Shown here: positions 415 to 64,000 of the stretch, in pieces
How positions within the stretch are numbered: the first letter of the stretch is position 1
Layout of the letters: each line of letters opens with the position of its first letter
Source of the DNA: an uncultured Gemmatimonadaceae bacterium
Lineage (GTDB): Bacteria > Gemmatimonadota > Gemmatimonadetes > Gemmatimonadales > Gemmatimonadaceae
Length of the DNA: 64,000 nt
Assembly: GCA_963829055.1 (NCBI GenBank)
Contig: CAWHHI010000020.1
Location: forward strand, 64,001-128,000
Direction of reading: 5' to 3'
Notes under the pieces: model-generated
The model's input: the letters and a program-made list of their open reading frames with translations, nothing else
Database searches by the model: none
Told to the model about the DNA's origin: nothing
Program-made: the position numbers and the translations under genes

Positions 415-462
415 CCTAACGATGACTCGTCGATGATCGAGCTGCCATTCCGAGCGACAGCA

Positions 463-597
463 TTGTCATCCCGAGGAGCGCCAGAGCCTGCCCTGAGGAG
501 CGCAGCGACGAAGGGAGGGACCTTCCGTGATGCCATCGTGGCTTCTCTGGCCACGAGTACTCCACACGAGGTCCCTCGCTGCCGCTCGGGATGACAA
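463..597. repeat. REP/MITE-like palindromic element
   Basis: 13-bp terminal inverted repeat TTGTCATCCCGAG/CTCGGGATGACAA, inner GAGGGACCT/AGGTCCCTC pair; same family as 11716-11866. Confidence 0.75.
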
Positions 598-611
598 CGC
601 CTTTCCCGCCG

Positions 612-650
612 TCCGCCCTCCGCCCTCCGCCCTCCGCCCTCCGCCCTCCG
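612..650. repeat. Heptamer tandem repeat (TCCGCCC)x5
   Basis: Five perfect units plus a partial unit, read directly. Confidence 0.9.
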
Positions 651-662
651 AAGGCCTCCTTC

Positions 663-1199
663 CTATGGCCCCACTCGGGTCAACAGAAGAAGTCCTACGA
701 GTCCCGGACCATGCACGAGCAACGCCGCCGGCCACAACGCGCGCCACGCAGTCCGCGGCAGCCAACGCTCCCGCGCGGCACGCTGAAATAGATACACCGA
801 GACCGGCGCGTTGATGAGAACGGCCGACGCGAGTCCGGGGCTGTAGCCACGCATGACGACCGCGGCGACCACCAGGTGCGACGCAACGTTGACGGCAACG
901 ACGGCCTGCACGAGGAGCGCGCACCAGCGCGCACCTAACGACGCTGGCCGCAACGTCACCCACAGCAGCACCATGAATGGGACCGCCGTCGCCCACAAGA
1001 GTGCAACACGAAGACCGTCCGGCTCCACCTCAGCCATGAACGGCTGGATGGACGCGGGAAGCGCCGCTCGCACGACGGGCAGGTACGCGGGGAACGTGAT
1101 CGCCTCCTCCGCGTTGTGCACCGCGAGCGCGATCGGGATCATCCACAGCGCCTGAAGCCGGCTCAATGACACGTGGGCATGAACGAGGGGCTCTGTCAT
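663..1199 (-). CDS. HXXEE domain membrane protein
   Basis: AVHNAEEA motif, hydrophobic helices, YSPGL motif. Confidence 0.85.
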   Translation of the reverse strand: MTEPLVHAHVSLSRLQALWMIPIALAVHNAEEAITFPAYLPVVRAALPASIQPFMAEVEPDGLRVALLWATAVPFMVLLWVTLRPASLGARWCALLVQAVVAVNVASHLVVAAVVMRGYSPGLASAVLINAPVSVYLFQRAARERWLPRTAWRALWPAALLVHGPGLVGLLLLTRVGP

Positions 1200-1323
1200 C
1201 CGGAACGACGATGTTCCTTTCGCGACGCCAGCGGTAGCGGCCGCAACTCCGCAGGCGCTGGCAGCGGTCGCGCCCTTCATTTATTCTGAACCGAGCGACA
1301 CGCGCGGTCAGGCGAAGAGGCCG

Positions 1324-2883: not shown

Positions 2884-4305
2884 ATGGGACGCTGGCGCCC
2901 CGACCCCACATTCTACGCGTCGCCCACACTGGCGGCGGAAGCTCCGGCCGAGTCGCTCGCCTACGTGGCGATGATCGCGCCGGAAGGCAACGGCAAGCGC
3001 GACGCGATCGGCGTCGTCGATACCGATCCGAGCTCGCCCACGTTCGGGAAGCTCGTCGGCCAGACCAACCTGCCGACAGCCGGCAACGAGCTACACCACT
3101 TCGGGTGGAACGCGTGCAGCTCGCACCTCTGTCCGTACGCGCCTCACGCGCACGTCGAGCGCCGCTTTCTCGTGGTGCCCGGCACCGGCTCGTCGCGCAT
3201 TCACATCCTCGACACGAAGGCCGACCCGCGGAACCCGGAGCTCGTGAAGCTCATCGAGGCGAGCGAAGTCGCCGCGAAGACCGGCTACGCCGCGCCGCAC
3301 ACCGTGCACTGCGGGACCGACGGCATCTACATCAACGCGTTAGGCGCGGTCGACGGCAATGGCCCCGGCGGCATCTTCATGCTCGACCACGAGACGTTCG
3401 ACGTGATGGGCCCATGGGAGCACGACCGCGGACCGCAGCACCTCGCGTACGACTTCTGGTGGCACCTCGGTCACGACACCATGATCTCGAGCGAGTGGGG
3501 CACGCCAAACATGGTGAAGGACGGCGTGAATCCCGAGCTGCTGCTTGGCGGCAAGTACGGCCACGCGCTGCACGTCTGGGACCTGCGCACGCGCAAGCAT
3601 CTCCAGACCCTCGACCTCGGCGCCGAGCAGCAGATGGTGCTCGAGCTGCGTCCGGCACACAATCCGCAGCGCGCTTACGGCTTCGTCGGCGTCGTGATCT
3701 CGCTCAAGGATCTCTCGTCGTCGATCTGGATGTGGTACCTCGACACGACGAACGCGCACGGCAAGAACAAGGGCGAGTGGAAGGTGAAGAAGGTCATCGA
3801 GATTCCCGCCGAGCCAGCGGACGCCGAGCACCTGCCGCCGCTGCTCAAGGGCTTCGGTGCCGTGCCGCCGCTCGTGACGGATCTCAACCTCTCGCTCGAC
3901 GACCGCTTCCTCTATGTCTCGTGCTGGGGAACGGGTGAGATGCGGCAGTACGACGTGTCGAATCCGCACGAGCCGAAGTTCGTGGGCTCCGTACACATCG
4001 GCGGAATCGTCAGGCGCACCTCGCATCCGAGCGCGCCGGACAAGCCACTCAACGGCGCGCCACAGATGGTCGAGGTGAGCCGCGACGGTAAGCGCGTGTA
4101 CCTGACGAATTCGCTGTACACGCCGTGGGACGCGCAGTTCTACCCTGACGGCATCAACGGCTGGATGACGAAGCTCGACGTCGGACCGGAGGGCGGTATC
4201 ACGTTCGATCCGAACTTCCTGCTCGAGTTCGAGGACGGCTTCCGTCCGCACCAGGTACGACTCCAGGGCGGCGATGCATCGTCCGACTCGTTCTGCTTCG
4301 GGTGA
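2884..4305 (+). CDS. Selenium-binding protein SBP56 family (methanethiol oxidase/SELENBP1-like)
   Basis: ELHHFGWNACSS, PHTVHC, YDFWW, ISSEWG, WDAQFYP, GGDASSD motifs; GGAGG RBS. Confidence 0.93.
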   Translation: MGRWRPDPTFYASPTLAAEAPAESLAYVAMIAPEGNGKRDAIGVVDTDPSSPTFGKLVGQTNLPTAGNELHHFGWNACSSHLCPYAPHAHVERRFLVVPGTGSSRIHILDTKADPRNPELVKLIEASEVAAKTGYAAPHTVHCGTDGIYINALGAVDGNGPGGIFMLDHETFDVMGPWEHDRGPQHLAYDFWWHLGHDTMISSEWGTPNMVKDGVNPELLLGGKYGHALHVWDLRTRKHLQTLDLGAEQQMVLELRPAHNPQRAYGFVGVVISLKDLSSSIWMWYLDTTNAHGKNKGEWKVKKVIEIPAEPADAEHLPPLLKGFGAVPPLVTDLNLSLDDRFLYVSCWGTGEMRQYDVSNPHEPKFVGSVHIGGIVRRTSHPSAPDKPLNGAPQMVEVSRDGKRVYLTNSLYTPWDAQFYPDGINGWMTKLDVGPEGGITFDPNFLLEFEDGFRPHQVRLQGGDASSDSFCFG

Positions 4306-4309
4306 CGCG

Positions 4310-5001
4310 ATGCACGTCCACCAGATGGCGCCTAACGTGGCGCACGGTGTGTGGCCCTGGGCAGCGCTGCTGCTGCTCGGGGCTGTGCACGGGATCAATC
4401 CCGGCATGGGGTGGTTGTTCGCGGTGGCGCTCGGGATGCAGCGGCAGGAGCGGGGCGCGGTATGGCGCGCCCTGCTCCCGCTGGCCGGCGGTCACGCGGC
4501 GGCGATCGCGGTGGCGGCGATCATCGTCGGCCTGGCCGGCATGGCGCTGTCGCTCGACACCATGAAGTGGATCGTCGCGGCGGTTCTGCTCGCGGTCGGC
4601 GTGTCGAAGCTCGTTCGGACGAAACACCCACGCTGGGGCGGGATGGCGGTCGGAAGCTGGCAGCTTGGCGTGTGGTCGTTCTCATGGCGTCGGCGCACGG
4701 GGCAGGATTGATGGCGGTGCCGTTCCTGCTGCGGATCGCTCGACCCGGCTCCACTCCGGTCGAGGGTATGGCCATGCATCATGCGGCGTTAGGCATGAGC
4801 GACCTGCCGCAGGTACCGGTCGCGGGCGTCGGCGTCGCAGTCGTCCACACGGTGGGGTACCTGCTCGTGACCGGCATCATCGCGGTCATCGTCTACGAGC
4901 GGCTGGGCCTCCGCCTGCTCGGCCGCGCGTGGTTCAACGTGGATCGCTTGTGGGCGGGCGCACTCATCGCCACGGCGTCGGTCACACCGTTTCTCGGATG
5001 A
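4310..5001 (+). CDS. SBP56-associated membrane protein (frameshift near 4682)
   Basis: GAVHGINPGMGWLFAVALG continues into LMASAHGAGLM in another frame; multiple TM helices. Confidence 0.8.
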
Positions 5002-8205: not shown

Positions 8206-8388
8206 CGTATTCGGCGGGGGGAGTGCTGGTGGGACGAGACCGAACTTACGATGACGAACCGTTGCTGGCCAGCCACGAAGCGAGAACCGCTGCTCGTCCT
8301 CGCCGAATGCCAGTGAGGGGATTGCAATCGTGGGTGCCCGCTGTTCCCGACGCCTGTCGTTAGGCGCGCCTCGCCGCGGAACGTAGCC

Positions 8389-10177: not shown

Positions 10178-11707
10178 ATGCAGGACGACCCCCGCGAAAC
10201 GGCTGCGCGCAGAGCCATCGATGCCGGCGACTGGCAGACGGCTCGCGACCTGTACGAGGCGCTCGCGCGGGAAACGAACGCGCCCGAGGCATGGGCGGGC
10301 CTCGCCGAGGCGGCGTGGCTGCAGCAGGACTCGCGGCTCATGATCGACGCGCGGCTGACCGCGTATCGCCTGCATCGCGAGCGCGGCAACGACGTCGCCG
10401 CCGCGCGCATGGCCATCGCGCTCGGCAACGACTTTCTCGACTTCCGCGGCGATGCCGCCGTCGCCAACGGCTGGTTCAAGTACGCGCGGCGGTTGCTCAA
10501 GCCGTTGCCGCCCTCGGCGGAGCATGCGCGGCTCAACGTCTGGGAAGCGCGTCTCGCGTTGATCGGCCGACAGGATACGGCCGAAGGCGCGCGCCTCGCC
10601 GAGGAAGCGTTAGGCCTCGCGCGCGAGAGCAATTGTCCGGATGTGGAGGTGCTCGCGACCGCGATGAGCGGGCTCGCGCTCGTCATGAACGCGCAGCCGG
10701 ATCGAGGGCTCGCCCTTCTCGACGAGGCGGCCGCCGCGGCGCTCGCCGGTGACATCTCCGATCCGTACGCGGCGGGGCTGACGTGCTGCTATCTGATCAG
10801 CGCCTGCGACCGCGTGCGCGACTACGACCGCGCCGCTCAATGGTGCGCGCGACTGCGCGAATTCTCCACGCGCCAGCGCTTCGCGATTCTGATGACCACG
10901 TGCCGCTTGCAGTACGGGAGCGTGCTGATCTCGCGCGGCGAGTGGGCTGAAGCCGAAGCGGAGCTGCAGGCGGCGATCGCCGATCTCCGCGAAGTCCGCC
11001 CGGTCGTCCTGCCGGCGGCGTATGCGAGACTCGGCGAGCTGCGTCGTCGCCAGGGCCGGACGGACGAAGCGGTCGAACTGTTCGAGCAGGCGGGCAGCCA
11101 TCCGCTCGCGCTGCTCGGCGGCGCCTGGATCGACATCGAGCAGGGCAATCTGACTCGCGCGCTCGAGCGGGCCCGCGCGTACTTGCGGCGCTTTCCGGAA
11201 GACGCGCTGCTCGAGCGTGCGCCCGCCAACGAGCTCATGGTTCGGATTGCGGCGGCATCCGGAAAACCGGCAGACGCCCAGCAGGCCCTCGCCGAATTGG
11301 AGAAGGCGGCCGCGAAGTACGAGCTGCCGCTGCTGCGCGCGGCGGTGCTGTCCGCCAAGGCCATCCTCGCGGCCGCCGATGGCGACGACGCGCGCGCCGC
11401 GGAATTGATGGAGGACGCGGCGGCGTTGTACGACAATGCCGGCTTCGTTCATGAAGCAGCGACGGCGCGCCGCGAGCTGGAGAAAACCAGGGGCAGCGGT
11501 TCAGTCGCGCCTAACGCGCCGCTCACGCAGCGCGAGATGGAAGTGCTCCGTCTGGTCGCGAAAGGCCTGAGTGAGCGCGAGGTCGCGGACAAGCTGTTCA
11601 TCAGCCATCACACCGCGCATCGGCATCTCTCCAACATTCGGCTCAAGCTCAACGCCGCGACGCAGGCGGCGGCCGTGGCGCACGCCGCTCGCATTGGTCT
11701 GATCTAG
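10178..11707 (+). CDS. TPR-LuxR (MalT-like) transcriptional regulator
   Basis: Helical repeats plus LTQREMEVLRLVAKGLS...HRHLSNIRLKL. Confidence 0.88.
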   Translation: MQDDPRETAARRAIDAGDWQTARDLYEALARETNAPEAWAGLAEAAWLQQDSRLMIDARLTAYRLHRERGNDVAAARMAIALGNDFLDFRGDAAVANGWFKYARRLLKPLPPSAEHARLNVWEARLALIGRQDTAEGARLAEEALGLARESNCPDVEVLATAMSGLALVMNAQPDRGLALLDEAAAAALAGDISDPYAAGLTCCYLISACDRVRDYDRAAQWCARLREFSTRQRFAILMTTCRLQYGSVLISRGEWAEAEAELQAAIADLREVRPVVLPAAYARLGELRRRQGRTDEAVELFEQAGSHPLALLGGAWIDIEQGNLTRALERARAYLRRFPEDALLERAPANELMVRIAAASGKPADAQQALAELEKAAAKYELPLLRAAVLSAKAILAAADGDDARAAELMEDAAALYDNAGFVHEAATARRELEKTRGSGSVAPNAPLTQREMEVLRLVAKGLSEREVADKLFISHHTAHRHLSNIRLKLNAATQAAAVAHAARIGLI

Positions 11708-12954: not shown

Positions 12955-12985
12955 CCGAGGTCGTCCAGCAAGTCGTTAGGCGAAC

Positions 12986-13023: not shown

Positions 13024-13343
13024 GTCAGTGCAGCGCAGGAGCATCGCGCACGGTTCCAGGTTCAGGTGCCGAACCAGCGCCTCCGCTGAAGACGAAACGT
13101 CAGATAGATCAATCGGTGCGGCGGTACCAGAAGAACAGCGCGTACTTGAGCACGATGAAGGTCGCGGCCACCGCTGAAGGCACGATGTCGCCACATCGAC
13201 GGGCGATACCTAACGTGGAATGCCCGGGTCTGCTGCGCTCCGCGTCACGAGCAGAACGAACGGCGTCGCGGCGAACGCGGCGACGAGCGCCAGCGTCGGG
13301 TACCCCCACGCGCCCACGATCACGCCGGAGAGTGCGCCCGCCG

Positions 13344-14035: not shown

Positions 14036-14200
14036 CCTCGAGAGGGAAGGCGCTCCGTGACGTTAGGCACGGCCAGCCAGGCAGCCTCTACCGCGCGATG
14101 CGTTGCGCGCAGGCCGATCGGTACTTTCTAGCGTCGCACCGTGACGGTAATCTGTCAGGCGACCGGGACACCATCGAATCTCTTTATGGGGAGGTGCGCC

Positions 14201-14629
14201 ATGGATGTTCGACAAACGATTACGCAACTCTACCGTGACTATGAGAATCGGGACCTACCGAAGATTCTGGCCGCGCTGCCGAACGACTTCGTGTTCGAAT
14301 GGCATCATGACCCGACTACGGCCCGGGAGGCCGGCATCTCTCGCAGCAAGGACGAGTTGGTCCACCATCTGAAGGATATTGCAGAACACTTTCGTTTCAA
14401 CGCGTATCACGCAACCAATATCCTGGTCGATGGAGATCGCGCCGCAGCGCAGCTTGAGGCCGACCTGACGTCTGTGGCCACCGGCAGCCGCTTCTCGATC
14501 CAGATCGCTCATTTCTGGTCGTTCGAGGACGGGATTCCGGTGCACCTCGTCGAGTACATGGATTCTGCGGTGATGGCGAGACACAGCACGCCGGCAGAAA
14601 GCGACGCTCCGTCCCCTGTGAGTGCCTAA
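14201..14629 (+). CDS. SnoaL/NTF2-like protein
   Basis: ILVDGDRAAA, HFWSFEDG, VEYMDS; GGAGG RBS; stop lies inside GCCTAAC. Confidence 0.85.
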   Translation: MDVRQTITQLYRDYENRDLPKILAALPNDFVFEWHHDPTTAREAGISRSKDELVHHLKDIAEHFRFNAYHATNILVDGDRAAAQLEADLTSVATGSRFSIQIAHFWSFEDGIPVHLVEYMDSAVMARHSTPAESDAPSPVSA

Positions 14630-14904
14630 CGACGAAAGGAACGCATCGGTTCGGCGTCCACACCTCGCAGCGTGACCGTCGCGATCGTGCCGCGTGGTTC
14701 CGTGCCGACGGTCCCCGCAAAGCGCCGCGCTGGTGTTCGATCGGACGGGATTGCCGGGGCTCCAGGTCATCCAGGATCCACTGGCTTACGAAAGCCGCAC
14801 CCAGCGCTCCAACATGGACGTGTTCGATCGTTGTACCTAGCAGCCGATGCGAAACCAGCCGCTGCCGCGTGAGGGCCGCTGAGCGCAGCCTCAGGAGGCC
14901 GTGT

Positions 14905-17340: not shown

Positions 17341-17440
17341 CAAGGTGATCGCGGTCGCGACGAGATTGCGTGGGTCTGCGGGGACGGCGACAGCGGTTGA
17401 CGACGGAAACGTCGCCGACCCAAGTCACCTGTTCGTTAGG

Positions 17441-17545: not shown

Positions 17546-17827
17546 GGCGCCGCGGCCGAGCGGTGGACGGAGAGAAAACTGTGCATCCCGGCCGTGCCGA
17601 AGGTTTCATCGCGCACGATGTCGTGTCCCTGCCCGTACGCGAACGACAACGCGGATGCCGATCCGTCGCTCGCGTTAGGCGGCGCTGATGTCGACCGTCG
17701 GGCCATTCACCGTCGTCGCGCCCGTGCCGAGACCACCATACGCCACCGGAGTCCACTCGCTGCCGGCGTCGCGACCCGGAGTCTGAAGTCCACCGCCCCG
17801 TGCAGCACGTTAGGCGGCTGCGGGCGA

Positions 17828-18082: not shown

Positions 18083-18198
18083 TGCATCGGCCCAGGCTTG
18101 GCTTGTCGGACTGTGGATGGCGTCTCCGACCGACGGCCCTCGCTGGCCTCCCTCTTAACCCAGGTGAGCTGCGCAAGGGTGTCATTGCCTCGCCATCG

Positions 18199-23529: not shown

Positions 23530-23607
23530 TGTGCGGTGTGGTCGATCGCCTAACGTGTAGCACCGATGGGCCGCTCGACCGTCATCCGACCCGGAGACGA
23601 CGCGACA

Positions 23608-38217: not shown

Positions 38218-38231
38218 GGAATGCCTGGTCG

Positions 38232-41288: not shown

Positions 41289-41307
41289 GCGTCCGCCCCA
41301 CCCGCCA

Positions 41308-49490: not shown

Positions 49491-49538
49491 GGGCGTGGGG
49501 TGGCCGAGCGACGACTGGCGTGGACGCCTAACGTCACG

Positions 49539-50060: not shown

Positions 50061-50102
50061 GGCGCCTCCAGACGCGTTCGGTTCGGTGATATCAGGCAGC
50101 GC

Positions 50103-50948
50103 CTAACGACCACTCGCGAGCGGGCTGCTCGCGAAGCCGCGCAGCGCCTTCATCCATTGCTGCGTCATGATGCCGAGGACGCGCCTTCCCTTCTCCGCGG
50201 TCGCGAGCGTCGGGTCGCCGAACACGCCGCTCGTCGAGAAATCGGGATCTCCAGGACGGCGCGAAAAGTCGGTCGGCCGGTAGCCGGGGTAGGCCGCGAC
50301 GGTGTCCCCTCGGTAGTCGCGCACGGCGCGGTCCATGTGTACCAGTTCCGGCCGCAGCGCCAGGATGACCGAGGTCTCGAGATCATCGGCATGAGTGCCC
50401 GCACGCTGGGTCGTGAGAGCCTTCATCGCCGCCGTCTCGAGGTCGTCCCAGGAGATGACGAGTGTCGGCACTCGCTCCTGCGCGTAAAGTGTCCGAGCGG
50501 CAAGCGTGATGGGGATGCCGGTCGACCGTGTCACGCCGGTGTTCAGGAACACCACGCGCCTGGCGCCGTGCCGCACGAGCGAGCGCCCAGCCTCGAGCAT
50601 GTAGTGCCAGAACACGTCGGGGTCGCCAATGGTGAGCCCCGGAAACTCCGCGAAGGCTGGGAACCAGCCGTGCAAGATCGGCGGTGCGACCACCACGGGC
50701 AGCGAGTCGACGGCGATCTTCGCGAGGTACTCCATTACGATCTGGTCGCTTGCGAGCGGGAGGTGCGGCCCGTGCTCCTTCGCTCCGGCACCGAACGGCA
50801 GGATGACCATCGGCGCGTCACGCAGCCGGCGTTCCGCCTCAGGCCATGTCAGGTCGCCCAGGAATACACCACGGGTCTGCGCAGTGGCGGGCACCGCGAC
50901 GGTCGTGCTGAGAGCGATCGTGGCCACGATGCGAAGCGAGAGTGACAT
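50103..50948 (-). CDS. Creatininase family protein with signal peptide
   Basis: KEHGPHLPLASD, HADDLETS, SGVFGDPTLATAEKG. Confidence 0.9.
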   Translation of the reverse strand: MSLSLRIVATIALSTTVAVPATAQTRGVFLGDLTWPEAERRLRDAPMVILPFGAGAKEHGPHLPLASDQIVMEYLAKIAVDSLPVVVAPPILHGWFPAFAEFPGLTIGDPDVFWHYMLEAGRSLVRHGARRVVFLNTGVTRSTGIPITLAARTLYAQERVPTLVISWDDLETAAMKALTTQRAGTHADDLETSVILALRPELVHMDRAVRDYRGDTVAAYPGYRPTDFSRRPGDPDFSTSGVFGDPTLATAEKGRRVLGIMTQQWMKALRGFASSPLASGR

Positions 50949-51039: not shown

Positions 51040-51228
51040 ATGCGGCGGCGTGGCCGCCGCCACCATACTCCGACGGCGGTGCTGCTTCTGCTCGAACGAG
51101 GGGCTGACTGGAAGCAGGGGAAGTCCGTCAACGGACTGCCGTTCGCGAGCGTGATCGACGGCGAGGTCGGCTCGCAGGGCAACGACAGCGCGTTCGTGGA
51201 CGTTAGGCGATACCTGCAGCAGCACTGA
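51040..51228 (+). pseudogene. Ankyrin-like C-terminal fragment
   Basis: AVLLLLERGADWKQG. Confidence 0.4.
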
Positions 51229-51782: not shown

Positions 51783-52009
51783 GCGCCTAACGCCAGATGG
51801 TTCGCTCGCCCGTCATGCCATTTCATTGACGCGTTCTACCAGCCGAACACCGTGCCGCGGGCGAATCGGCGAGATCTGCGTGCATGCGACAGCAGTCGGC
51901 CGTCGGCATCGACAGTGACGTCGCCGAACGTGTCGAGGCCGAGTTCGAGAGTGGCGGTGGGAGTGGGGTGGAGCTCATGGCCAAAAACCACACTGCTGCC
52001 CGCGTGCCA

Positions 52010-52921: not shown

Positions 52922-52986
52922 CGTGCTCGACCCGACGTTAGGCGACGTAGGGCGTCCCCGAAATCCTGACGATGCGAAGCACTGAT

Positions 52987-54060
52987 ATGGCAACAGACCT
53001 GTTCACCCCGATCAGGCTGGGCGGTCTGGAACTGCCCAACCGCATCGTGATGGCGCCGCTGACCCGCAACCGCGCGGGGCAGCCCGGCAACGTGCCACAG
53101 CCGATCAACGCCACCTACTACGCGCAGCGTGCCTCGGCGGGCCTCATCATCACCGAGGGCTCACCGATATCGGATATGGCGCACGGGTACCCCGGCACCC
53201 CCGGTATTCACAGCCCAGCGCAGGTGGCCGGCTGGAAGCGGGTGACGGACACGGTGCATGCCGAGGGCGGGCGCATCTTCCTGCAGCTGTGGCACGTCGG
53301 ACGGATCTCTCACCCGTCGCTGCTGCCTAACGATGCGCTGCCAGTGGCTCCCTCCGCCATCAAACCGGCGGGCAAGGCATTTACGCATCAGGGGAGGACG
53401 GATTTCGTCACGCCGCGTGCGCTGGAGACCTCGGAGATTCCGGCGCTGATCGAGGATTTCCGCGTTGCGGCGCACAATGCCACGACTGCTGGGTTTGACG
53501 GAGTGGAAGTGCATGGCGCCAACGGCTACCTGCTCGACCAGTTTCTCCGTGATGGCAGCAATCACAGAACGGACCAGTATGGCGGCTCAATCGCCAACCG
53601 AACGCGGCTGCTGCAGGAAGTGGTGGCGGCTGTGTGCGAGGTGTGGGGCGCCGATCGCGTCGGCGTCCGCATTTCGCCGCTCAACCAGTACAACGACATG
53701 CGCGATTCCAACCCGCAGGCGCTGTTCAACCACGTGGGCGATACGCTCCGTCCATTCGGTCTGGCCTATCTGCACGTGATGGAGCGTGACGTGCACGGCT
53801 CGGAGGTGCCGCTCGACTTCCCCGAGTTGCGGCGTCGTTTCAATGGGCATTACATGGCGAACGGCGGCTACGACAAGCGACGCGCCAACGCGGCAATCGC
53901 GGCGAGTCGAGCCGATTGCGTCGCGTTCGGCACATCGTACATCGCCAACCCCGATCTGGTCGAACGCTATGCCCAGGATGCGCCGCTCAACGTGGCTGAC
54001 CCCAGCACGTTCTACGGGGGTCGCGAACAGGGATACACGGACTATCCGGCGCTGACCGGC
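52987..54060 (+). CDS. Alkene reductase (old yellow enzyme/NemA-like); expected stop missing, ORF reads on to 54459
   Basis: NRIVMAPLTR, QLWHVGR, HGANGYLLDQF, GYTDYP. Confidence 0.93.
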
Positions 54061-55153: not shown

Positions 55154-55250
55154 GCGTCGTCGGTTTGCTCGACCGGGCGTGACGGGCCACGTCGTCAGAT
55201 CATGCTGCTCCGTAGACTGAGTATCGAACGCTCGAGGATCTGTGGAAACC

Positions 55251-55341
55251 GCCTAACGCATAAGTTGAGCTGCAAGCGAACGCAGTAAGAGCGCGGCCCG
55301 CCGCTTCGGTAGCCCCCTTGTCAATGCAACGCACGTTAGGC
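55251..55341 (-). mobile_element. attC site (91 bp)
   Basis: GCCTAAC GTGCGTTGCATTGACAAG ... CTTGCAGCTCAACTTATGC GTTAGGC. Confidence 0.85.
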
Positions 55342-55423
55342 GACCGGTCACGATGCCGACTTCGTGTCGGCGCTGCTGATAGGAAGGCCTGCATACGCTG
55401 CTTACCCCAGAATATGGGCATTC

Positions 55424-55513
55424 GCCTAACGCCTGAAGTTCACCTGCAAGGTTGATCCGGCGGCACAACCGCCAGCACGATAGCGCCCTTGGCGAGTGCA
55501 ACGCACGTTAGGC
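55424..55513 (-). mobile_element. attC site (90 bp)
   Basis: GCCTAAC GTGCGTTGCAC...CAAG ... CTTGCAGGTGAACTTCAGGC GTTAGGC, 10 nt after the hicA stop. Confidence 0.88.
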
Positions 55514-55523
55514 GGTTACCGCG

Positions 55524-56025: not shown

Positions 56026-56282
56026 GCCTAACGCTCATCGTGCGGCGTTCGTGAAACGGATAACGGGGCGTGACCGCGCGAATACAGCGCTTCTTCGCCG
56101 TCTAATTCACGACAATGCGGCGAGGCTCAGGCCGCAGATGTAACCCCCGTCGTGCCAACCTGATACTTCCGAGCGACGCCACCGTCCGTGTTAGGCGGCG
56201 AGGCTCGCCGTATAACACAATGGCGACAGAGCACGTTTCGAACACACCCTGACCCCGCCGCTCTACATGCCGGACGCCTAAC
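56026..56282. mobile_element. Integron-platform-like element, copy B
   Basis: Homologous to 40998-41288; abuts the first cassette (hicBA) at GTTAGGC. Confidence 0.6.
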
Positions 56283-56402
56283 GCGCCATACCACCGGACG
56301 CCGGGTGCACAAGCGGGGCGGCTATCGTGTCAGCCCACGAAGCCTCGGCAGCCAGCACGATGGCTATTCCCAGCTACGCTGCAAGCTGATGTCTGGCCCA
56401 TT

Positions 56403-57285: not shown

Positions 57286-58905
57286 CTAGGCCCTGACCGT
57301 TCGACGAGCGCGGTCCTCCTCCCACTCGACGAATGGGCCATCGAAGTCCGTGAGCTGCGTGCCGTCGAACGACCACACGCGCGTTGCTACCTCGCGCAGG
57401 AACGCGCGGTCGTGACTCACCAGGAGCACGGAGCCTTCGTATTCGTCGAGCGCATCCTCGAGCGCCTCGATGTTCTCGACATCGAGATGGTTGGTCGGCT
57501 CATCGAGAATCAGGAGATTGGCACGCGCGAGCGTCATGAGCGCGAGCGCCACGCGAGCCCGCTCGCCACCGCTCAGTGTGCCGATCTCGCGTTGCACTTC
57601 GTCGCCGCTGAATCCGAACGCACCGAGACAATTCTGCACCTGGCCCCGGCTCCAGAGCGGCCGCTGATCCTGGATCGCATCAAACAGCGACTTGCGGAGC
57701 GGGAGGTCCGCGAGATCCTGCCGAAACCACGCGGGGGTGATCGATCCGCCGATCCTTGCCTCGCCACCCGCCGGTGCGCGATCGCCAATGATCGTGGAGA
57801 TGAACGATGACTTGCCCGCGCCGTTAGGCCCGACGAGCGCGACGAAGTCGTTCCGTCGGAGCACCGCCGTGAAATCCTCCACGAGGACGCGTCCGGGGAC
57901 TTCCACGCGCAGGTCCTCGATCGCGACCACCTGGTCGCCGCCGCGTTCCGCGGTTTCGAACTGCAGCGACATCGTCGCTGGGTCGCCAGGCGGCGGTGCG
58001 AGACGCGGCAGGCGCTCGAGTCGCTTGCGCTTGCCCTTGGCCTGGAAGGAGTTGACGCCGGCCAGGTTGCGACGGATGTACTCCTCTTCCTTCTTCACGT
58101 ACGCCCGCTGCTTTTCCAGCTCGCGCTCACGCGTTAGGCGTCGCTCGGCGCGCTGCGGGACGAACTGGCTGTAGTTCCCTCTGTACCACTCGCTCGTGCG
58201 CGCTTCCAGGTGCAGGATGTGCGTGGCGATGGCATCGAGGAACGCCCGGTCATGCGAGACGACGATGACCGTCTCGTTCGCGTCGCCGAGCCATTCCTGG
58301 AGCCACGTCGTGGTGTCGAGGTCGAGGTGGTTCGTGGGCTCGTCGAGGAGGAGCAGGTCAGCGGGCGCGATGAGCTGCGCCGCCAGGCCGACGCGTCCCC
58401 GCTCGCCACCCGAGAGCGACGACACCGGGCGCACCTTGGACTCCTCGGCGTCGAAGCCGAGGCCCTGAAGCACCGCGTCGACGCGAGCGTGGTAGATGTA
58501 GCCGCCCAGGTCCGCGAAGCGCTCCTGGTCGTTCCCGAACTGTTCGAGGAATTCGTCCGTGACGCGGTCGCCGAGCTCACCCAACTCGATGGCCTGTTCG
58601 GCGATTCGCTTCTCGAGAGCGATCACTTCGCGCCACGCCGCCGCGCCCGCGTCCCACACCGTGGTCGCGCCCTCGAAGGCGCGGTGCTGGTCGAGCAGGG
58701 CATGCCGAAGTCCCGGCTTGCGTGCAACGCTCCCCACCGTGGGTTTGAGATCCCCGGTGATGAGTTTGAAGATCGACGACTTGCCAGCGCCGTTGCGTCC
58801 AATGATGCCCCACCGCTCGCCGTCGGCGACGGTGAAGGTGATGTTCTTGAAGAGTTCCGTCGCGCCGAAGGAGACGCCGACGTTGGCGAGCGAGAGAAGG
58901 GTCAC
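57286..58905 (-). CDS. ABC-F family ATPase
   Basis: Two NBDs (GRNGAGKS/LSGGE/DEPTNHLD), no TM. Confidence 0.95.
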   Translation of the reverse strand: MTLLSLANVGVSFGATELFKNITFTVADGERWGIIGRNGAGKSSIFKLITGDLKPTVGSVARKPGLRHALLDQHRAFEGATTVWDAGAAAWREVIALEKRIAEQAIELGELGDRVTDEFLEQFGNDQERFADLGGYIYHARVDAVLQGLGFDAEESKVRPVSSLSGGERGRVGLAAQLIAPADLLLLDEPTNHLDLDTTTWLQEWLGDANETVIVVSHDRAFLDAIATHILHLEARTSEWYRGNYSQFVPQRAERRLTRERELEKQRAYVKKEEEYIRRNLAGVNSFQAKGKRKRLERLPRLAPPPGDPATMSLQFETAERGGDQVVAIEDLRVEVPGRVLVEDFTAVLRRNDFVALVGPNGAGKSSFISTIIGDRAPAGGEARIGGSITPAWFRQDLADLPLRKSLFDAIQDQRPLWSRGQVQNCLGAFGFSGDEVQREIGTLSGGERARVALALMTLARANLLILDEPTNHLDVENIEALEDALDEYEGSVLLVSHDRAFLREVATRVWSFDGTQLTDFDGPFVEWEEDRARRTVRA

Positions 58906-60377
58906 GCGGAGATGGAGGAAGGCTCAGGGAAGCTTTGGCGGGGCGCTGCTGCACGTGCACTCGGCCCCTTCATGCGCGACACGTCTCGAGCCACGCCGGC
59001 CAGCATGGAGTCGAGCTTCGCGCGATCGAGGTATCGCCCGCGCACCACGATACCATGGATGCGCCTGGTCGCGCTGATGTCGGCGACCGGGTTGCCGTCG
59101 AGGATCACCAGGTCCGACGCGGACCCTCGCGACAGCACGCCATGGCGCGACTCCCTGCCGAGCCAGCGCGCCCCGTTGATCGTCGACGCCTGCAGAGCCT
59201 GGAGCGGCGTCAACCCGGCCTTTACGAGGAGTCCCAGTTCATCGTGCAGGCCAATTCCGGGATAGTCGTACGAGTTCAGGAATCCGGCGTCGGTGCCGGC
59301 CAGGATCAGCACGCCCGATTGCTGCAGCAATGGAAGCTTCGAGCTCGAGAACTCGTAGTTCGCGTGCCGTCTCGCGATCGCTTCTGGCGTCGAGCCGGCC
59401 TGTCGCTCGATGCGCCAGGCATACGTCGCCCGCAGTCCGGGTCCAATGTACTTCAGGTATTCGTCCCTGGTGTGGTCCTCGCTGTCGAGCCAGGCCAGCG
59501 TGCGACTGATGTTGAGCGTCGGCGTAATCGCGGTGCCTCGTTCCGCCATGAATCGGTAGAGCGCGACCGCATTTGCCGAGTCGAATGATGACTGGTTGTC
59601 GGCGCCCGGCGCCCTCGGGATTCCCTCGCTGCCTCCGCGGATGGCGTACGACAGGTGTTCGATCGAGCCGAGTCCGAGCTCCACGGCCTCCCTGACAGGC
59701 ACGCCCGAAGGAATGTGCGCCGAGCTCTTCATGCCGCGCCGCCGGATCTCGCCTAACGCGTACCGGAACAGCTCGGGCTTGAGGGTGTTGTCCGTGAGTT
59801 TCACGAAGTCGACGCGCAGCCGCTGTAGGTTGTCGAGCGCGCTGTCCACGCCGGCCTGAGTCTCCACTTCGGTGTCGCCAGGCCAGATCGAGTTCTTCCC
59901 TTCGATCTTCGGGCCTGACGTGAAGATCATCGGACCGTCCAGCGACCCTCGGGCGACGGAATCACGCCAGGCCAGCACCGTCGACGACAGGTCTCCTGCG
60001 GCGTCGCGAACCGCCGTCACACCATGCGCGAGATACAGCGGCAGCAGCACGCGGTTCTCGTTGATCAGCGTGTCGCCGCCGCCGAAGTGCATGTGCATGT
60101 CCCACAGTCCGGGAATGACATGGCGCCCCGCGGCATTGATGACCTGCCGGGCGCGAAAGCGCGAGCCCTCGGCGGAATCGCCGATCGCGACGATCGTGTC
60201 CCCTCTGATGGCGATGACGCGACCCGGCGTGATGGCACCTGATCGCGTGTCCACCACGCGCGCCCGGGTGATGAGAAGGTCGACCGGGGTTCCTTGCGGC
60301 GCGCGGGCAGCCAGCGGCACCACCATTCCCGCCGCGACCAGCCCGACCATCGATACTGCATGGAGCCTGCGCATCAT
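58902..60377 (-). CDS. Secreted amidohydrolase
   Basis: IPGLWDMHMH, SIEH, AGTDAG, DLVILDGNP. Confidence 0.92.
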   Translation of the reverse strand: MMRRLHAVSMVGLVAAGMVVPLAARAPQGTPVDLLITRARVVDTRSGAITPGRVIAIRGDTIVAIGDSAEGSRFRARQVINAAGRHVIPGLWDMHMHFGGGDTLINENRVLLPLYLAHGVTAVRDAAGDLSSTVLAWRDSVARGSLDGPMIFTSGPKIEGKNSIWPGDTEVETQAGVDSALDNLQRLRVDFVKLTDNTLKPELFRYALGEIRRRGMKSSAHIPSGVPVREAVELGLGSIEHLSYAIRGGSEGIPRAPGADNQSSFDSANAVALYRFMAERGTAITPTLNISRTLAWLDSEDHTRDEYLKYIGPGLRATYAWRIERQAGSTPEAIARRHANYEFSSSKLPLLQQSGVLILAGTDAGFLNSYDYPGIGLHDELGLLVKAGLTPLQALQASTINGARWLGRESRHGVLSRGSASDLVILDGNPVADISATRRIHGIVVRGRYLDRAKLDSMLAGVARDVSRMKGPSARAAAPRQSFPEPSSISA

Positions 60378-60456
60378 CCTTCCTTGCGGGATCGTGCTTC
60401 AACACTCATGGAACCGTGCCGCGGTGTGACGCCCGAGTGCAGACGGCCCTGGAGAG

Positions 60457-61143
60457 TCAAGAGCGCGACCAGTTTGCTACAACTTGCTCGATCGTGGAAC
60501 GAACATGGGCGCGGGCCTCATGCCTGTCCCAGCCGGCGCCGAGCAGGCGATCGTAGTCGGTGTGAACGTGGCGAATGTGAGCGTTCACGGCCAGAGTAAT
60601 CGCCTCGGCGTCGAAGCGTTTGGCCTCGGCTGTCCGTCCAACTCTCCCCGAGTACTTGCGGCAGGCGTGTTCCGCGATCGCGACCGACTCCGGCTCGGGA
60701 CAGCTCGGATACAGAGCGCGAACGTGTCGAGCAAACTCGTCTCGGTAGTGCGCGTCGAGTTGAGCGTCACGTTCTGCTCGCCGCTCACGCATGCGTGCCC
60801 GAGCGTCGGCATCGGCGAGACACTCCTGCTCGGCTCGCGCCAGCGCGTTCTCCTCAACCAGGACTCCCTGACGTTCGTAGCGGTTCCGAGCACGACTGAA
60901 GCGGACGACGACCGCTTTCAAGGACGAATAGCGGCCGGCCCGTCGGGTCAGCGCTGCGTCGCCGCTGGGTAGGAAGACGAGGTGAGCCAGGTCGGCGCAA
61001 GAGAGACAGAGCGGACGCTCGCCCTCGAGGCGAAGCCATCGACCCTTGCCGAGCTCCTCGCCGCACTCGGCGCAGGTCGAATCGCGAAGGATCTCGAAGA
61101 CGACAAGATCCTCAGGTTTTGCTTTCTGCGGAGAGGAAGGCAT
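60457..61143 (-). CDS. DUF2293 domain protein with an N-terminal Zn ribbon
   Basis: CAEC...CLSC; SGRVGRT; AHIRHVHTDYDRLL. Confidence 0.85.
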   Translation of the reverse strand: MPSSPQKAKPEDLVVFEILRDSTCAECGEELGKGRWLRLEGERPLCLSCADLAHLVFLPSGDAALTRRAGRYSSLKAVVVRFSRARNRYERQGVLVEENALARAEQECLADADARARMRERRAERDAQLDAHYRDEFARHVRALYPSCPEPESVAIAEHACRKYSGRVGRTAEAKRFDAEAITLAVNAHIRHVHTDYDRLLGAGWDRHEARAHVRSTIEQVVANWSRS

Positions 61144-61196
61144 ACGCAGTGAACGACAAACGCAATGCCGTCGGCCACGCCGGTCGATACGAGTTG

Positions 61197-61637
61197 CTAG
61201 TGCGCGGCGCGTTGTGCCGCGACGTAGTCGCGGAGCACGTCTGCCTCTGTCTCGAGCTGCCGAAGGCGATCCTTGAGGAGGTCGCCCACCGAGAGCACGC
61301 CGACGAGCTTGCCCTCGTCGAGCACCAAAAAGTGTCGCTGCCGCTGCGCCGTCATGCGATGCATCGCGTCTGCGATCGCGTCGTCGGCCTCGCATGTGGG
61401 CGCCGGGCGCATCAGGTCGTGAACACGACGCGAGCCAAACGTGAACGGCGTTTCGTGCGCGGCGCGCACGACGTCACGCTCGGCGAGAATTCCGACGACG
61501 CTGCCGTCATCGGCGAGCACCGGCAGACCACCGATGTTGTGTCTCATGAGCAGGCCGATTGCCGTGCTCAGGTCGTCTTTCGCCTGAACGGTAATGACCT
61601 TGTCCGCCTTGGCCCTGATCAGATCTCGAACGCGCAT
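61197..61637 (-). CDS. CBS domain protein
   Basis: VGILAERDVV, LVGVLSVGDLLK. Confidence 0.9.
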   Translation of the reverse strand: MRVRDLIRAKADKVITVQAKDDLSTAIGLLMRHNIGGLPVLADDGSVVGILAERDVVRAAHETPFTFGSRRVHDLMRPAPTCEADDAIADAMHRMTAQRQRHFLVLDEGKLVGVLSVGDLLKDRLRQLETEADVLRDYVAAQRAAH

Positions 61638-61844
61638 ACGTGCCTCGAATTCTTATGTGCCCATCTATCAATATAGAGGCGTCGCGAGCAGGAGGTATCG
61701 CCCGAACGTACCATGACACCGTCTCGTGTGGCGGCCATTTCCACGATACGAAAACGGGCGAGAGGTGGGTGAATGGCGCGCGAAGCGGCCCCGAGGATAG
61801 GGCTCGCGCCGAGATGAACGGTGAGCCGGCACCCTGTCTCGTGC

Positions 61845-64000
61845 CTACGCGGCGGATCCTCCTCGCGATCCAGGCGAGTGAGGCGATGCACGCAGACGAT
61901 CGATGGGACTGCGACGATCCGTCCTTTCGCCGGGCCACCAGTTCCACCGCCCTGCGAGCACCAGCAACGCTGGACTCACCGCCAAACGCATCACCGTCGC
62001 ATCGAGCAACACCGCGACGGCGAGCGCGAAGCCGAGCATCTTCATCAGCAGAAACTCCCCGAACATGAACGCGCCGAACACCACGAGCATGATCGCCGCC
62101 GCGCTCGTGATCAGTCGTCCAGTGTGCACCAGCCCGGAAGCGATCGCGTCGCGCTCGCCGAGGCCGGCCAGACGCGCCTCACGCACACGCGCGACGAGAA
62201 ACACCTCGTAGTCCATGCTCAGACCGAAAACGACACAGAAGACGAGCACCGGAATCGCCGGAAAGATGCCGTCGAGCGGACCTGCCACTCCCAGCAGCGA
62301 CGCGCCGATCCCATCCTGAAAGACGACCGTCACGGCGCCGAACGCGCCAGCTACTACCAACAGGTTGAGCACGATCGCCTTGAGCGGCACGAGCACCGAC
62401 CGAAAGCCGACCGCGAGCACGAGAAAGGTCGCGACTACGATCAGCATCACCACCTGCATGAAACGCGATCGCCCCGCAACCGCCGCCTCGTAGTCGACGT
62501 TGAGCGCCGGAAGTCCGCCAACGCTGAGACGTGCTGCTCCCACGGGAGTGACCATCAACGGTTGCACGGAGCGAATGCGCCTGACGAGCGCCGCGAGGTC
62601 GTGCGGCGTCGTTGCTTCGCGCGGAATTACCTCCAGCAGTGCGACACGCCCATCGCGGCTGACGAACGATCGTCGCACGTCGTCCGGAAGCGCCGCGAGC
62701 AACGCCTCTCTCGCTATCAGACTGCCCATCGGCGCGAGCAGCCCAGGCAGAGACCGCACGCGCTCCACCGCGGAATCAGCAACGAGCGAACGCGCGAGAC
62801 GAGTGGTTGCCGCCCAACCGCTGTCATCCACCGCTGAGACGCCGCGCGGGAATTCCAGCGTCAGGCGGATGGTCTGGACGACAGCACTCCGGCCCATCGC
62901 TCCGAGAGAGCGCAGCGCGATAGCCGACTCCATCTCCTTCGGGAGCCAGTCCCCGCGCGGCTGCGTCGCATTCAGCCGCAAGCCCTGCCACGCCAACAGG
63001 CATACCGGAAGACCTGACAACAGCAGTACGCGGCTTGGATGACGCGTGACGAAGTCAGCCCACGCACGCCATCCAAATCCGGAGCGCGACGCGTCTCTGC
63101 ATGACGCGCAAGCGTCCTGCGTCTACCCGGTGGCCGAGGGCCGCCAGAATTCCCGGAAGCAGCGTCGTTGCCACGAGCATCGAGACGCCAGTCACGAGCA
63201 GTCCGCCAATCGCCACCGAGCGCAGCTCGTTGACGGGCATCACGGCCAGCGCACTGAAGCCGATCGCTACCGCGCATCCCGCCAGAAGAATCGTTGGTCC
63301 GGCATGACGGAGGGCCTCGCGTGCCGCGAGCTCACGCTCATGCCCAACGCGCAACTCCTCACGGAAGCGCGCGAGCACCAGCAGCGAGTAGTCGATGCCG
63401 AGTCCCAAACCGATCATCGTGACGACGTTCTGCAGCAGAATCGACAGCGACCACGCATGCGCGACGAACGCGGCGATGCCTAACGTCACGCCGATTGCGA
63501 GCAGCGCGCCGGCCACTGGCAGAAACGCGGCGACGATTGCGCCGAACGCAACGAACAGCAACACCAGCGTCACCGGAGCCGCACGCCACTCGGCGCTCCG
63601 CGCATCAGCCGCGCTCGTCCGGCGGAGGTCGGCGTTGAGCGCCACTTGTCCGGTCCATCGCATCGTCGCGGCGGGATGGTCGCGCCGGAGCGCTATCTCG
63701 AATCGGCGCGTCGCCTGGCGCAGCGTGTCGAGCAGTACATCTGCCTGACGCTGCTCGTCGAGACCCACGATCATGAATGTGCCACGCGCGGTGTCACTCC
63801 GCGTGTCGACGAAGAGCGGCTCGTGTCCATCGAGATAGGAGATCACGCGAGTCACGCCGCGAATCGCCTGCACCGAGTCGACGAGCGTGCGCAACACATC
63901 GCCGCCGAGCGGTGTTTGTGGCGATGGAACACCCGTCGCCGCCAGAACGACGGACTGCGCGAACGGCGACTGGAAGCGGCGCGCCAGCTGTTCATCCACC
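61845..64000 (-). CDS. MMPL/RND family transporter (5' end outside the window, frameshift near 63060)
   Basis: GLGLGIDYSLL, FGLSMDYEVFL, TGRLITSAAAIM, GRWNWWP. Confidence 0.92.

Follow-up and report, generated by a model that had tools for sequence, protein, structure and literature searches.

A hyper-abundant octamer shared with the integron R box in Gemmatimonadaceae genomes and its possible role as a DNA self-tag

The window analyzed here is a 64-kb stretch (C20:64001-128000) of the genome of an uncultured Gemmatimonadaceae bacterium (G000; 7.78 Mb in 20 contigs, 66.7% G+C, 86% complete, 4% contamination), in which a short word, CCTAACG/CGTTAGG, mostly in the octamer form GCCTAACG (reverse complement, CGTTAGGC), is repeated far beyond chance expectation. 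Exact copies in the window numbered 69 (plus strand, 36; minus strand, 33), compared with a mean of 3.01 (standard deviation, 1.89; maximum, 9) in 100 dinucleotide-preserving shuffles, none of which reached 69. The hexamers CCTAAC and GTTAGG numbered 40 and 35 (75 in total), and the two octamers added up to 55 (27 + 28). This recount agrees exactly with an earlier note on this DNA, which had reported 75 hexamers (40 and 35 by orientation) and 69 copies of CCTAACG, and the range given there, 415 to ca. 63484, starts and ends at the first site (415) and the last one (63479-63485).

We tentatively read (R)CCTAACG, mostly in the form GCCTAACG, as a self-tag in duplex DNA similar to the DNA uptake sequence (DUS) of the Neisseriaceae and the uptake signal sequence (USS) of the Pasteurellaceae, maintained by a putative sequence-specific reader; we hold this to be possible rather than probable. 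Such a reader would give word-carrying DNA an advantage in transmission or survival, the likeliest route being that the transformation machinery (type IV pilus and ComEC) preferentially takes such DNA up and that homologous recombination then incorporates it. A molecular-drive model has been proposed for both DUS and USS. Under this reading, copies would accumulate at low-cost positions (rare codons used synonymously, stop codons, and the 60 nt directly past genes), would settle at about one per 0.4 to 1.6 kb, would outlast neutral sequence, and would vanish once a lineage loses the reader. Starting from the observed statistics, placement, conservation, phyletic pattern, dialects, and encoded uptake machinery, we infer both that uptake is the step at which the word is read and that drive, rather than selection on each site, is what keeps it up.

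Abundance, placement, and anatomy of the word

Across the whole genome, CCTAACG was present in 6391 copies (3154 + 3237) and GCCTAACG in 5004 (2457 + 2547), ca. one per 1.55 kb, and the octamer ranked first among all 8-mers under an order-3 Markov model. Markov backgrounds of orders 1, 2, and 3 were built after masking the word, because the word itself makes up most of the genomic CCTAA (3494 of 3637 occurrences on one strand); they predicted 120, 57.5, and 19.2 copies, respectively, an excess of 42- to 260-fold. Genes were called with a self-trained codon log-odds picker of open reading frames (ORFs), whose rough calls span 79% of the genome. Within the called genes, we counted 4273 copies, while 10 shuffles permuting synonymous codons inside each gene left only 371 ± 18 (an 11.5-fold difference). 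This control is conservative, because the rare codons brought by the word itself are retained. A codon-preserving shuffle had been proposed in the earlier note as a check on the enrichment, which persisted.

All four stop-free frames were used inside genes: xCG-TTA-GGx 1642 times, CCT-AAC-Gxx 1264 times, xxC-CTA-ACG 802 times, and xxC-GTT-AGG 565 times. On the long contigs, no 100-kb bin favored either strand, and the orientation of the copies was unrelated to GC skew. Together, strand balance and the use of all four open frames bear out the earlier claim that the signal acts on DNA irrespective of frame and strand. Among 5231 better-supported genes, the word held 57% of all TTA codons, 21% of CTA, 14% of CCT, and 9% of AGG, as well as 222 of the 685 TAA stops and 163 of the 1361 TAG stops. 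When only the 3791 genes with room on both sides were considered, 285 stops came from the word (161 as CC-TAA-CG and 124 as CGT-TAG-G). In the 60 nt 3' of the stop codon, word density was two to three times that inside genes, in both orientations. A bias to gene termini has been described for the uptake sequences of Pasteurellaceae (PMC2346458).

Regarding spacing, gaps of 0 to 100 bp numbered 149 versus 509 expected under a Poisson model, and gaps of 400 to 1200 bp were 1.25 to 1.32 times as frequent as expected. The motif logo was R-CCTAACG, with G in 78%, A in 13%, C in 7%, and T in 2% of the copies at position -1; the flanks were nearly information-free, with C in 41% and A in 28% at position +7. 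Edge preferences followed the order G>A>C>>T at position 1 of the octamer and G>>A at position 8. Among the variants, GCATAACG was exceptional (583 copies, ca. 11 times the expectation) and may be a second permitted form of the reader's site; GCCTGACG, which is composed of common codons, reached two to three times the expected number. No partner motif was detected within 100 nt of the word, where the only enriched 6-mers were GC-rich coding words.

Conservation and phyletic distribution

In 104 kb aligned to the congeners G001 and G004 (82 to 83% identity), 47 of the 79 sites of the source genome kept the word, about twice the rate of 7-mers as a whole, only 31 to 33% of which were identical; a further 22 sites were found in the congener only. 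Pooling this alignment with orthologues of the window's own genes gave 51 conserved sites out of 92. Where the word was missing in an orthologue, its place was usually taken by a common-codon alternate, CCGAGCG, CCGAACG, or CCTGACG. That the commonest alternates lie one or two steps off would suit a context-specific mutation or repair bias creating the word with no reader acting. However, differing substitutions at differing positions converge on one word, the one-step neighbors are not depleted as a single repair reaction would predict, and neither short-range repulsion nor above-background conservation would result from a mutational process. The source genome yielded no C5 methyltransferase that might act together with Vsr-type repair (no search for Vsr was made), and we regard such an origin as highly unlikely.

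To describe the word across the family, we scored 251 genomes from 77 genera by the ratio of word count to reversed-word count, with values of ≤0.3 classed as depleted, values of ≥3 as rich, and the remainder as intermediate. The tallies include four unpublished genomes (G013, G056, G057, and G155), none of them rich and none the basis of an example named for the family spread, and all statistics across genomes are inflated by kinship. Sixty-eight genomes were rich (30 of them with a ratio of >10), 148 were depleted, and 35 were intermediate, in line with the lineage specificity claimed earlier; by median, 21 of the 77 genera were rich. Two genera were mixed. In g23, ratios ranged from 0.77 to 6, while in g56, five genomes (G071, G171, G203, G232, and G259) stood at 13 to 16 and the sixth, G129, at 0.35. 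G129 (96% complete) has 66 copies versus 190 of the reversed control and retains an integron integrase (457.5 bits); set against its five rich congeners, it represents a natural knock-out for locating the reader. No substitute hyper-abundant word was found in the word-poor relatives G008 (200 kb), G017 (200 kb), and G018 (60 kb). The rich genome G014 and the weakly rich G010 had the same specificity profile as the source genome (genera g1, g9, and g5), including GCATAACG, with 17 copies in 120 kb of G014 and 7 in 220 kb of G010.

The word is also abundant in a second phylum. When 185,579 species genomes were scanned for triplets of co-oriented words 250 to 280 nt apart, at least 132 stretches were returned. 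Among the matches listed were metagenome-assembled genomes (MAGs) of Gemmatimonadaceae and, with dispersed hits, of Chthoniobacterales, as well as integron arrays of many phyla; further word-rich groups may exist beyond them. Within the Verrucomicrobiota, plus- and minus-strand counts were 2282 and 2280 in G031 (3.2 Mb; reversed control, 141 and 144), 2584 and 2602 in G032 (4.3 Mb; 138 and 119), 708 and 757 in G033 (2.4 Mb; 120 and 109), and 569 and 586 in G035 (3.2 Mb; 150 and 151). G034 (3.3 Mb) was not enriched (153 and 154; control, 152 and 143). Here a ninth letter was added to the word: GCCTAACGA accounted for 95% of the octamers in G031, 89% in G032, 97% in G033, and 85% in G035, compared with 31% in G014 and 25% in G000 among the Gemmatimonadaceae. 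GCATAACG was not enriched in G031 (29 copies versus 1668 octamers in 1.14 Mb). Dialects have been documented for DUS (PMC3630211).

We looked for a reader shared between the phyla by comparing 7427 proteins of the source genome with 1.14 Mb (ca. 36%) of G031 using tblastn, and no shared DNA-binding candidate was obtained. The high-identity matches were housekeeping or metabolic genes, and the median identity of the proteins common to both genomes was 38%. Two proteins stood apart from this background. The first (C19:8758-9423(+), locus L282; 222 amino acids [aa]), nuclease-like but without a Pfam family, with a PD...D-x-K-like motif recognized by eye, is 67% identical to its G031 counterpart; among the 31 relatives described below, it was found in G000 only, and it looks like a sporadically transferred gene. 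The second is encoded in the window (32797-33189(-); 130 aa) and has by eye the look of a small glyoxalase-family protein. Its identity of 74% to the translation of G031 C10:3485-3895 suggests cross-phylum transfer, perhaps as a cassette.

Integrons and candidate readers

In integron attC sites, the consensus is RYYYAAC for the R'' box and GTTRRRY for the R' box, and the site folds from R''-L'' to L'-R' into an imperfect hairpin of ca. 60 to 140 nt. Three genomes from other families of the same order (G021, G019, and G029) have few octamers, arranged as co-oriented arrays every 500 to 600 bp, and these array sites are classical attC, with R'' GCCTAACG, L'' ... L', and R' TGTTAGGC; one attC of G021 folds at -37.3 kcal/mol (z score, -7.9). 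Letter for letter, the word is the R'' box GCCTAAC of this order's attC plus a G. The match to the integron core GTTAGGC pointed out in the earlier note is therefore real. Trained on 23 sites of G021 and G019, a covariance model recovered 9 sites in G029. In the source genome, it gave 8 attC hits at E values of ≤0.0035, all on the plus strand, within ca. 32 kb (C20:173.5-205.8 kb; loci L088-L090), next to which an integron integrase (IntI) is encoded at C20:208041-208958(-) (265.7 bits versus a cut-off of 265).

The window lies 80 to 144 kb from this integrase, and its words point both ways without forming a co-oriented array. The attC model returned three marginal hits in it (E values, 0.09 to 0.6), one without the word (8026-8109(-); 18.7 bits; E value, 0.094) and two that contain 4 of the 69 words. 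Element 1 (55248..55344(+)) has inverted words ca. 75 nt apart, at 55252..55258(+) (left arm, R''-like) and 55334..55340(-) (right arm, R'-like), with short L-box-like pairing, but it is weak (15.2 bits; E value, 0.61; DNA fold z score, -0.7 to -1.2). Element 2 (55421..55516(+)), with arms at 55425..55431(+) (left) and 55506..55512(-) (right), is weak as well (17.3 bits; E value, 0.2; z score, -1.9 to -2.1). Both are a further 54 kb away from the attC hits of the integron, and with these values, compared with the z score of -7.9 in G021, we rejected the inverted pairs as true attC. The other 65 words of the window are solitary and outside attC-like hairpins. The earlier note would have been contradicted by copies confined to cassettes; instead, most lie in ordinary genes.

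Could the genomic copies be read by IntI or a derivative of it, as secondary attI/attG-like half-sites or as decoys? The identity of the word with the R'' box plus one base in the three arrays, the integron with its IntI and 8 attC hits in the source genome, and the purine at the first position, as in the consensus, speak for it. Rich genomes also had IntI-like matches somewhat more often (50 of 68 versus 107 of the remaining 183; odds ratio, 1.97; Fisher P value, 0.03, uncorrected for kinship and genome size). Yet IntI is neither necessary nor sufficient: 18 of the 68 rich genomes had no match, including G070, G114, G128, G203, and G232, which are 95 to 99% complete; 107 non-rich genomes had one; and none was found in G031, the densest of the Verrucomicrobiota genomes. 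The partner arm and hairpin recognized by IntI are missing from the solitary words of the window and from those of the genome in general, and insertion sites within genes should be counter-selected rather than enriched. Moreover, the variants allowed by the YYY of the consensus (GCTTAACG, GTCTAACG, and GCCCAACG) were not enriched, whereas GCATAACG, which breaks it, was. We therefore consider IntI an improbable reader, with no useful association across the 31 relatives, the 5 Verrucomicrobiota genomes, and the 251 genomes of the family.

Other candidate genes (ComEC, PilM, FtsK, nucleases, and methyltransferases) were compared across 31 relatives. The source genome and most of these relatives are MAGs, in which a gene that is not found is not thereby shown to be absent. 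A Chi-like signal for an end-processing nuclease, or one resembling the FtsK orienting polar sequences (KOPS) that guide a translocase, would likewise be an asymmetric, roughly 8-letter word present in excess in resident DNA, and the source genome encodes both an AddAB-type pair of PD-(D/E)XK nuclease domains (C15:11.7-16.0 kb) and an FtsK that bears the gamma domain. However, Chi (read by RecBCD or AddAB) and KOPS or architecture imparting sequences (AIMS; read by FtsK) are polarized along replichores, and the 100-kb bins of the source genome showed no replichore polarity of the word, which largely refutes this explanation. Genus g55 seemed polarized only through the order in which its sites were listed; contig C1 of G170 has 30 plus and 32 minus copies, interleaved. 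The enzymes do not track the word either. RecC was not found. The AddAB-type domain was patchy (13 of 31 relatives), missing from the rich genomes G001, G002, G005, and G014 and present in the word-poor genomes G008, G009, G011, G016, G020, G026, G028, and G029, and we discarded it. FtsK-gamma was single-copy in 29 of the 31, with none in G015 and two in G000; the second FtsK-like translocase is confined to G000 and sits in a word-free stretch, so it was rejected too. Of all the explanations weighed here, a Chi- or KOPS-like role seems the most remote.

Modification or restriction-modification, with abundance as a by-product, is hardly more plausible. Asymmetric sites of 6 to 8 bp are typical of Type IIG, III, and ISP enzymes, and the source genome has methyltransferases of the Eco57I family (adjoining an SNF2 helicase at C8:73551-78317; motifs DPACGSG and NPPW) and of the D12 class (C8:134.6-135.6 kb). 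Neither tracks the word: D12 was found in 13 of the 31 relatives, among them the word-poor G007, G009, G013, G015, G017, and G018 and not the rich G014, and the Eco57I-family protein was present in 29, rich and poor, with an identity that follows kinship. The N6_N4, C5, and N6_Mtase families gave no hit in the source genome, at its completeness of 86%, and methyltransferases were accordingly rejected as readers. Restriction targets are, besides, normally avoided rather than enriched. As a separate observation, the Eco57I-family protein is ca. 1070 aa long in the relatives, apparent frameshifts split the G000 copy, and its conservation across the order is unusual for a defence-type gene. The cyanobacterial highly iterated palindrome HIP1 (GCGATCGC), also a hyper-abundant octamer within genes, was offered as a parallel in the earlier note, but it is a poor one: HIP1 is a palindrome linked to a methyltransferase, while the word is asymmetric and no methyltransferase tracks it.

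The comparison with DUS (whose reader is the minor pilin ComP) and USS fared better, holding on most features that can be counted. Like them, the word is short and non-palindromic, occurs about once per kb on both strands, lies in coding DNA in several frames limited by the in-frame stop, and is biased to gene ends; it is spaced more evenly than chance, is conserved yet turning over, and has lineage dialects in genomes that encode a type IV pilus and ComEC. It differs in having only 8 letters (9 in Verrucomicrobiota).

Several observations weigh against a self-tag. Its spread is patchy within a single family, the word being rich in only 68 of 251 genomes although ComEC and PilM were found in all 31 relatives searched, rich and poor alike, and the trait is present or absent, unlike the dialect continuum of the Neisseriaceae. 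Plain uptake does not explain why one core is found in two phyla and is identical to the integron R box. A decaying tag should leave a clear excess of near misses, but one-letter variants of the inner CCTAAC stood at only ca. 0.4 to 3 times the masked expectation (for instance, 13 copies of GCCTAATG, 24 of GTCTAACG, and 24 of GCTTAACG), a shortfall that a bias against AT-rich rare codons may explain. The terminator-like inverted pairs of DUS and USS are missing: close inverted pairs were not enriched genome-wide, and convergent, divergent, and same-strand neighbors were equally rare at short range. In the small sample of the window's own orthologues, only 4 of 13 sites were shared. No reader emerged among the competence, translocase, nuclease, methyltransferase, and integrase genes tested, and the competence genes, being near-universal, do not discriminate. 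The pilins of the source genome form a cluster at C12:397.8-402.8 kb; the minor pilin linked to pilM was found in 29 of the 31 relatives, rich and poor, with an identity to G000 of 31% in the rich G014 and 34 to 38% in poor genomes (the ComP_DUS family itself was not searched for). Finally, three long stretches of the source genome, of 49.6, 44, and 31.5 kb (C6:5440-55038, C11:1-44055, and C6:591808-623330; G+C, 0.66 to 0.73), are free of the word. Their existence would suit a tag that is scarce in recently acquired DNA, but they encode housekeeping genes, several apparently split by frameshifts (trp and aromatic amino acid biosynthesis, chorismate synthase, and the second FtsK), a content that speaks against mobile islands; the stretches may be mis-binned or mis-joined DNA of a word-poor organism rather than recent imports.

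Nearly as good a fit as the uptake tag is an abundant cytoplasmic DNA-binding protein (a nucleoid-organizing factor, a loader, or the self-marker of a defence system) whose sites are each under ordinary selection. It would suit the even spacing and short-range repulsion, the above-background conservation, the strand symmetry, and the long word-free stretches, and it would account for competence genes not tracking the word and for the missing terminator-like pairs. Still, no candidate protein tracks the word, an essential chromosomal site is unlikely to be depleted or absent in 148 of 251 genomes or to flip within g56 (5 rich, 1 poor), and the turnover of ca. 40% of the sites between congeners opposes strong selection on each. 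On balance, we consider such a binder rather unlikely, albeit a serious contender. The integrase, Chi/KOPS, modification, and mutational explanations each fail at least one direct test. As to the mechanisms offered in the earlier note, modification was weakened by the methyltransferase results, and recombination through an integrase or Chi by the lack of polarity and of any enzyme tracking the word; the tests did not separate uptake from other protein binding.

Sites in the window and significance of the word

According to the gene calls, 37 of the 69 sites in the window lie in a coding sequence (CDS), 5 across a CDS end, and 27, including the four attC-like arms, in intergenic DNA, some of which may belong to genes missed by the calls. 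The independent calls reproduced the in-frame readings of the earlier note. TTA-GGN was thus recovered at 3338..3344(-) in CDS 2884-4305(+) (SBP56 family; GCG-TTA-GGC, Ala-Leu-Gly), 4787..4793(-) in CDS 4672-5001(+) (GCG-TTA-GGC), 10608..10614(-) in CDS 10163-11707(+) (TPR/LuxR regulator; GCG-TTA-GGC), 24440..24446(-) in CDS 23566-24927(+) (ACG-TTA-GGC), 34260..34266(-) in CDS 33905-34657(+) (class I Trp/Tyr tRNA synthetase family; TCG-TTA-GGC), and 59752..59758(+) in CDS 58902-60377(-) (amidohydrolase; GCG-TTA-GGC), the last kept in the G002 orthologue. The same frame is used at 934..940(+) in CDS 663-1280(-) (TCG-TTA-GGT, Ser-Leu-Gly), 15299..15305(+) in CDS 14905-16035(-) (TPR; ACG-TTA-GGC), 18929..18935(+) in CDS 18199-19593(-) (beta-lactamase family; CCG-TTA-GGT), 24686..24692(-), again in CDS 23566-24927(+) (GCG-TTA-GGC), 45161..45167(-) in CDS 44860-45318(+) (ACG-TTA-GGC), 46264..46270(-) in CDS 45354-46352(+) (short-chain dehydrogenase; CCG-TTA-GGC), and 63479..63485(+) in CDS 63055-64155(-) (MMPL family; ACG-TTA-GGC). 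Three MacB/FtsX permease genes contribute further examples, CDS 29112-31736(-) at 30526..30532(+) (GCG-TTA-GGC) and 31417..31423(+) (GCG-TTA-GGG), CDS 35790-38078(-) at 35956..35962(+) (GCG-TTA-GGT), and CDS 46444-48882(-) at 46703..46709(+) (GCG-TTA-GGC), as does the PD40 beta-propeller gene, CDS 42921-44648(-), at 44179..44185(+) (GCG-TTA-GGT; not in the G005 orthologue).

For the CCT-AAC frame, agreement extended to 4331..4337(+) in CDS 4310-4711(+) (CCT-AAC-GTG, Pro-Asn-Val), 28769..28775(+) in CDS 28538-29044(+) (AHSA1-like; CCT-AAC-GGC), and 57822..57828(-) in CDS 57286-58905(-) (ABC-F ATPase; CCT-AAC-GGC; kept in the G001 orthologue, CCGAACG in G003 and G002). Further sites are 11510..11516(+) in the TPR/LuxR regulator gene (CCT-AAC-GCG, Pro-Asn-Ala), 37760..37766(-) in CDS 35790-38078(-) (CCT-AAC-GGG), 43418..43424(-) (CCT-AAC-GGC) and 43829..43835(-) (CCT-AAC-GGG) in the PD40 gene, both also in the G005 orthologue, 47145..47151(-) (CCT-AAC-GAG) and 48177..48183(-) (CCT-AAC-GCT) in CDS 46444-48882(-), and 53326..53332(+) in CDS 52972-54459(+) (NADH:flavin oxidoreductase; CCT-AAC-GAT; CCGAACG in the G002 orthologue). 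CTA-ACG was likewise reproduced, always as CGC-CTA-ACG, at 30792..30798(-) in CDS 29112-31736(-) (Arg-Leu-Thr), 45365..45371(+) in the short-chain dehydrogenase gene, and 58132..58138(-) in the ABC-F gene (not in three orthologues), and it also occurs at 36708..36714(-) (AAC-CTA-ACG) and 37104..37110(-) (CAC-CTA-ACG) in CDS 35790-38078(-). GTT-AGG was confirmed at 15877..15883(+) in CDS 14905-16035(-) (ATC-GTT-AGG, Ile-Val-Arg) and 42142..42148(+) in CDS 41308-42924(-) (amidohydrolase; AAC-GTT-AGG); a third case, 51201..51207(-), falls in a weak 49-aa call, 51079-51228(+) (GAC-GTT-AGG).

The word supplies the TAA stop at 14625..14631(+) for CDS 14141-14629(+) (SnoaL-like), 18197..18203(-) for CDS 18199-19593(-), 27212..27218(+) for CDS 27010-27216(+), and 32194..32200(-) for CDS 32196-32720(-), and at 50102..50108(+) its complement gives the TAG stop of CDS 50103-50948(-) (creatininase family). 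Three of the four stops proposed earlier are among these (14625, 18197, and 50102). The fourth, 38230..38236(-), read earlier as ending an overlapping plus-strand ORF with TAG, was called inside CDS 38158-38847(-) as CGC-CTA-ACG. Other copies closely follow genes: 415..421(+) (aCCTAACGa), immediately 3' of a CDS ending at 414; 8358..8364(-), ca. 25 nt beyond the 3' end of CDS 8389-8883(-); 12974..12980(-), 20 nt after CDS 12451-12954(+); 14061..14067(-), 26 nt after CDS 13646-14035(+); 23549..23555(+), 21 nt after CDS 22830-23528(+); 29079..29085(+), amid the converging gene ends 29044 and 29112; 35737..35743(+), 20 nt after CDS 35112-35717(+); 41283..41289(+), 19 nt beyond the 3' end of CDS 41308-42924(-); 49527..49533(+), 6 nt beyond the 3' end of CDS 49539-50060(-); 51786..51792(+), 4 nt after CDS 51270-51782(+); and 56027..56033(+), 50 nt after CDS 55609-55977(+). 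Intergenic by the gene calls are 13209..13215(+), 17434..17440(-), 17673..17679(-), 17808..17814(-), 19702..19708(-), 20853..20859(+), 27920..27926(-), and 40999..41005(+), and intergenic too are 33207..33213(+), 39364..39370(+), 52936..52942(-), and 56277..56283(+). Apart from the word, the source genome has a second abundant repeat, with the core GCTCGGAATGAC(A) in ca. 670 to 690 copies and a variant, GCTCGGGATGAC, which may be an element like the repetitive extragenic palindromic (REP) sequences or the miniature inverted-repeat transposable elements (MITEs).

In the literature searched, we found nothing linking the word to Gemmatimonadaceae, describing GTTAGGC as an uptake sequence, or dealing with uptake sequences in gemmatimonads, which agrees with the earlier impression that it is undescribed in this group. 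Among the matches listed (titles and abstracts), the literal octamer GCCTAACG appeared in unrelated contexts, apparently primers or constructs, and a search for over-represented DNA uptake sequences in Verrucomicrobia listed only work on Neisseriaceae and Pasteurellaceae. To our knowledge, sequence-specific uptake self-tags are established in only these two families of Proteobacteria, and the reader of the Pasteurellaceae tag is debated. An equally strong candidate tag here fills large soil genomes of two further phyla, switches on and off between close relatives, and equals the recombination core of integron cassettes. In a practical sense, the word can serve as a barcode to spot foreign or mis-binned DNA in these MAGs.

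A more specific and doubtful version of the self-tag would tie both halves of these observations together: a putative reader binding the integron R-box word GCCTAACG in duplex DNA might bias uptake or recombination toward word-carrying DNA in about one-quarter of the Gemmatimonadaceae and, having diverged to read the ninth letter, in Chthoniobacterales. If so, both gene cassettes and the DNA of kin would be drawn from the soil DNA pool, since the word is part of the attC of each integron cassette; drive would have left its trace in the thousands of copies across the genome, and transformation would be tied to the integron cassette economy. The 68 rich and 148 depleted genomes within one family, the contrast within g56, and the dialect of the second phylum provide the material to search for the reader, whose identification would bring to light either an uptake receptor or a chromosome-wide DNA-binding system of a new kind, or else connect transformation with integrons.

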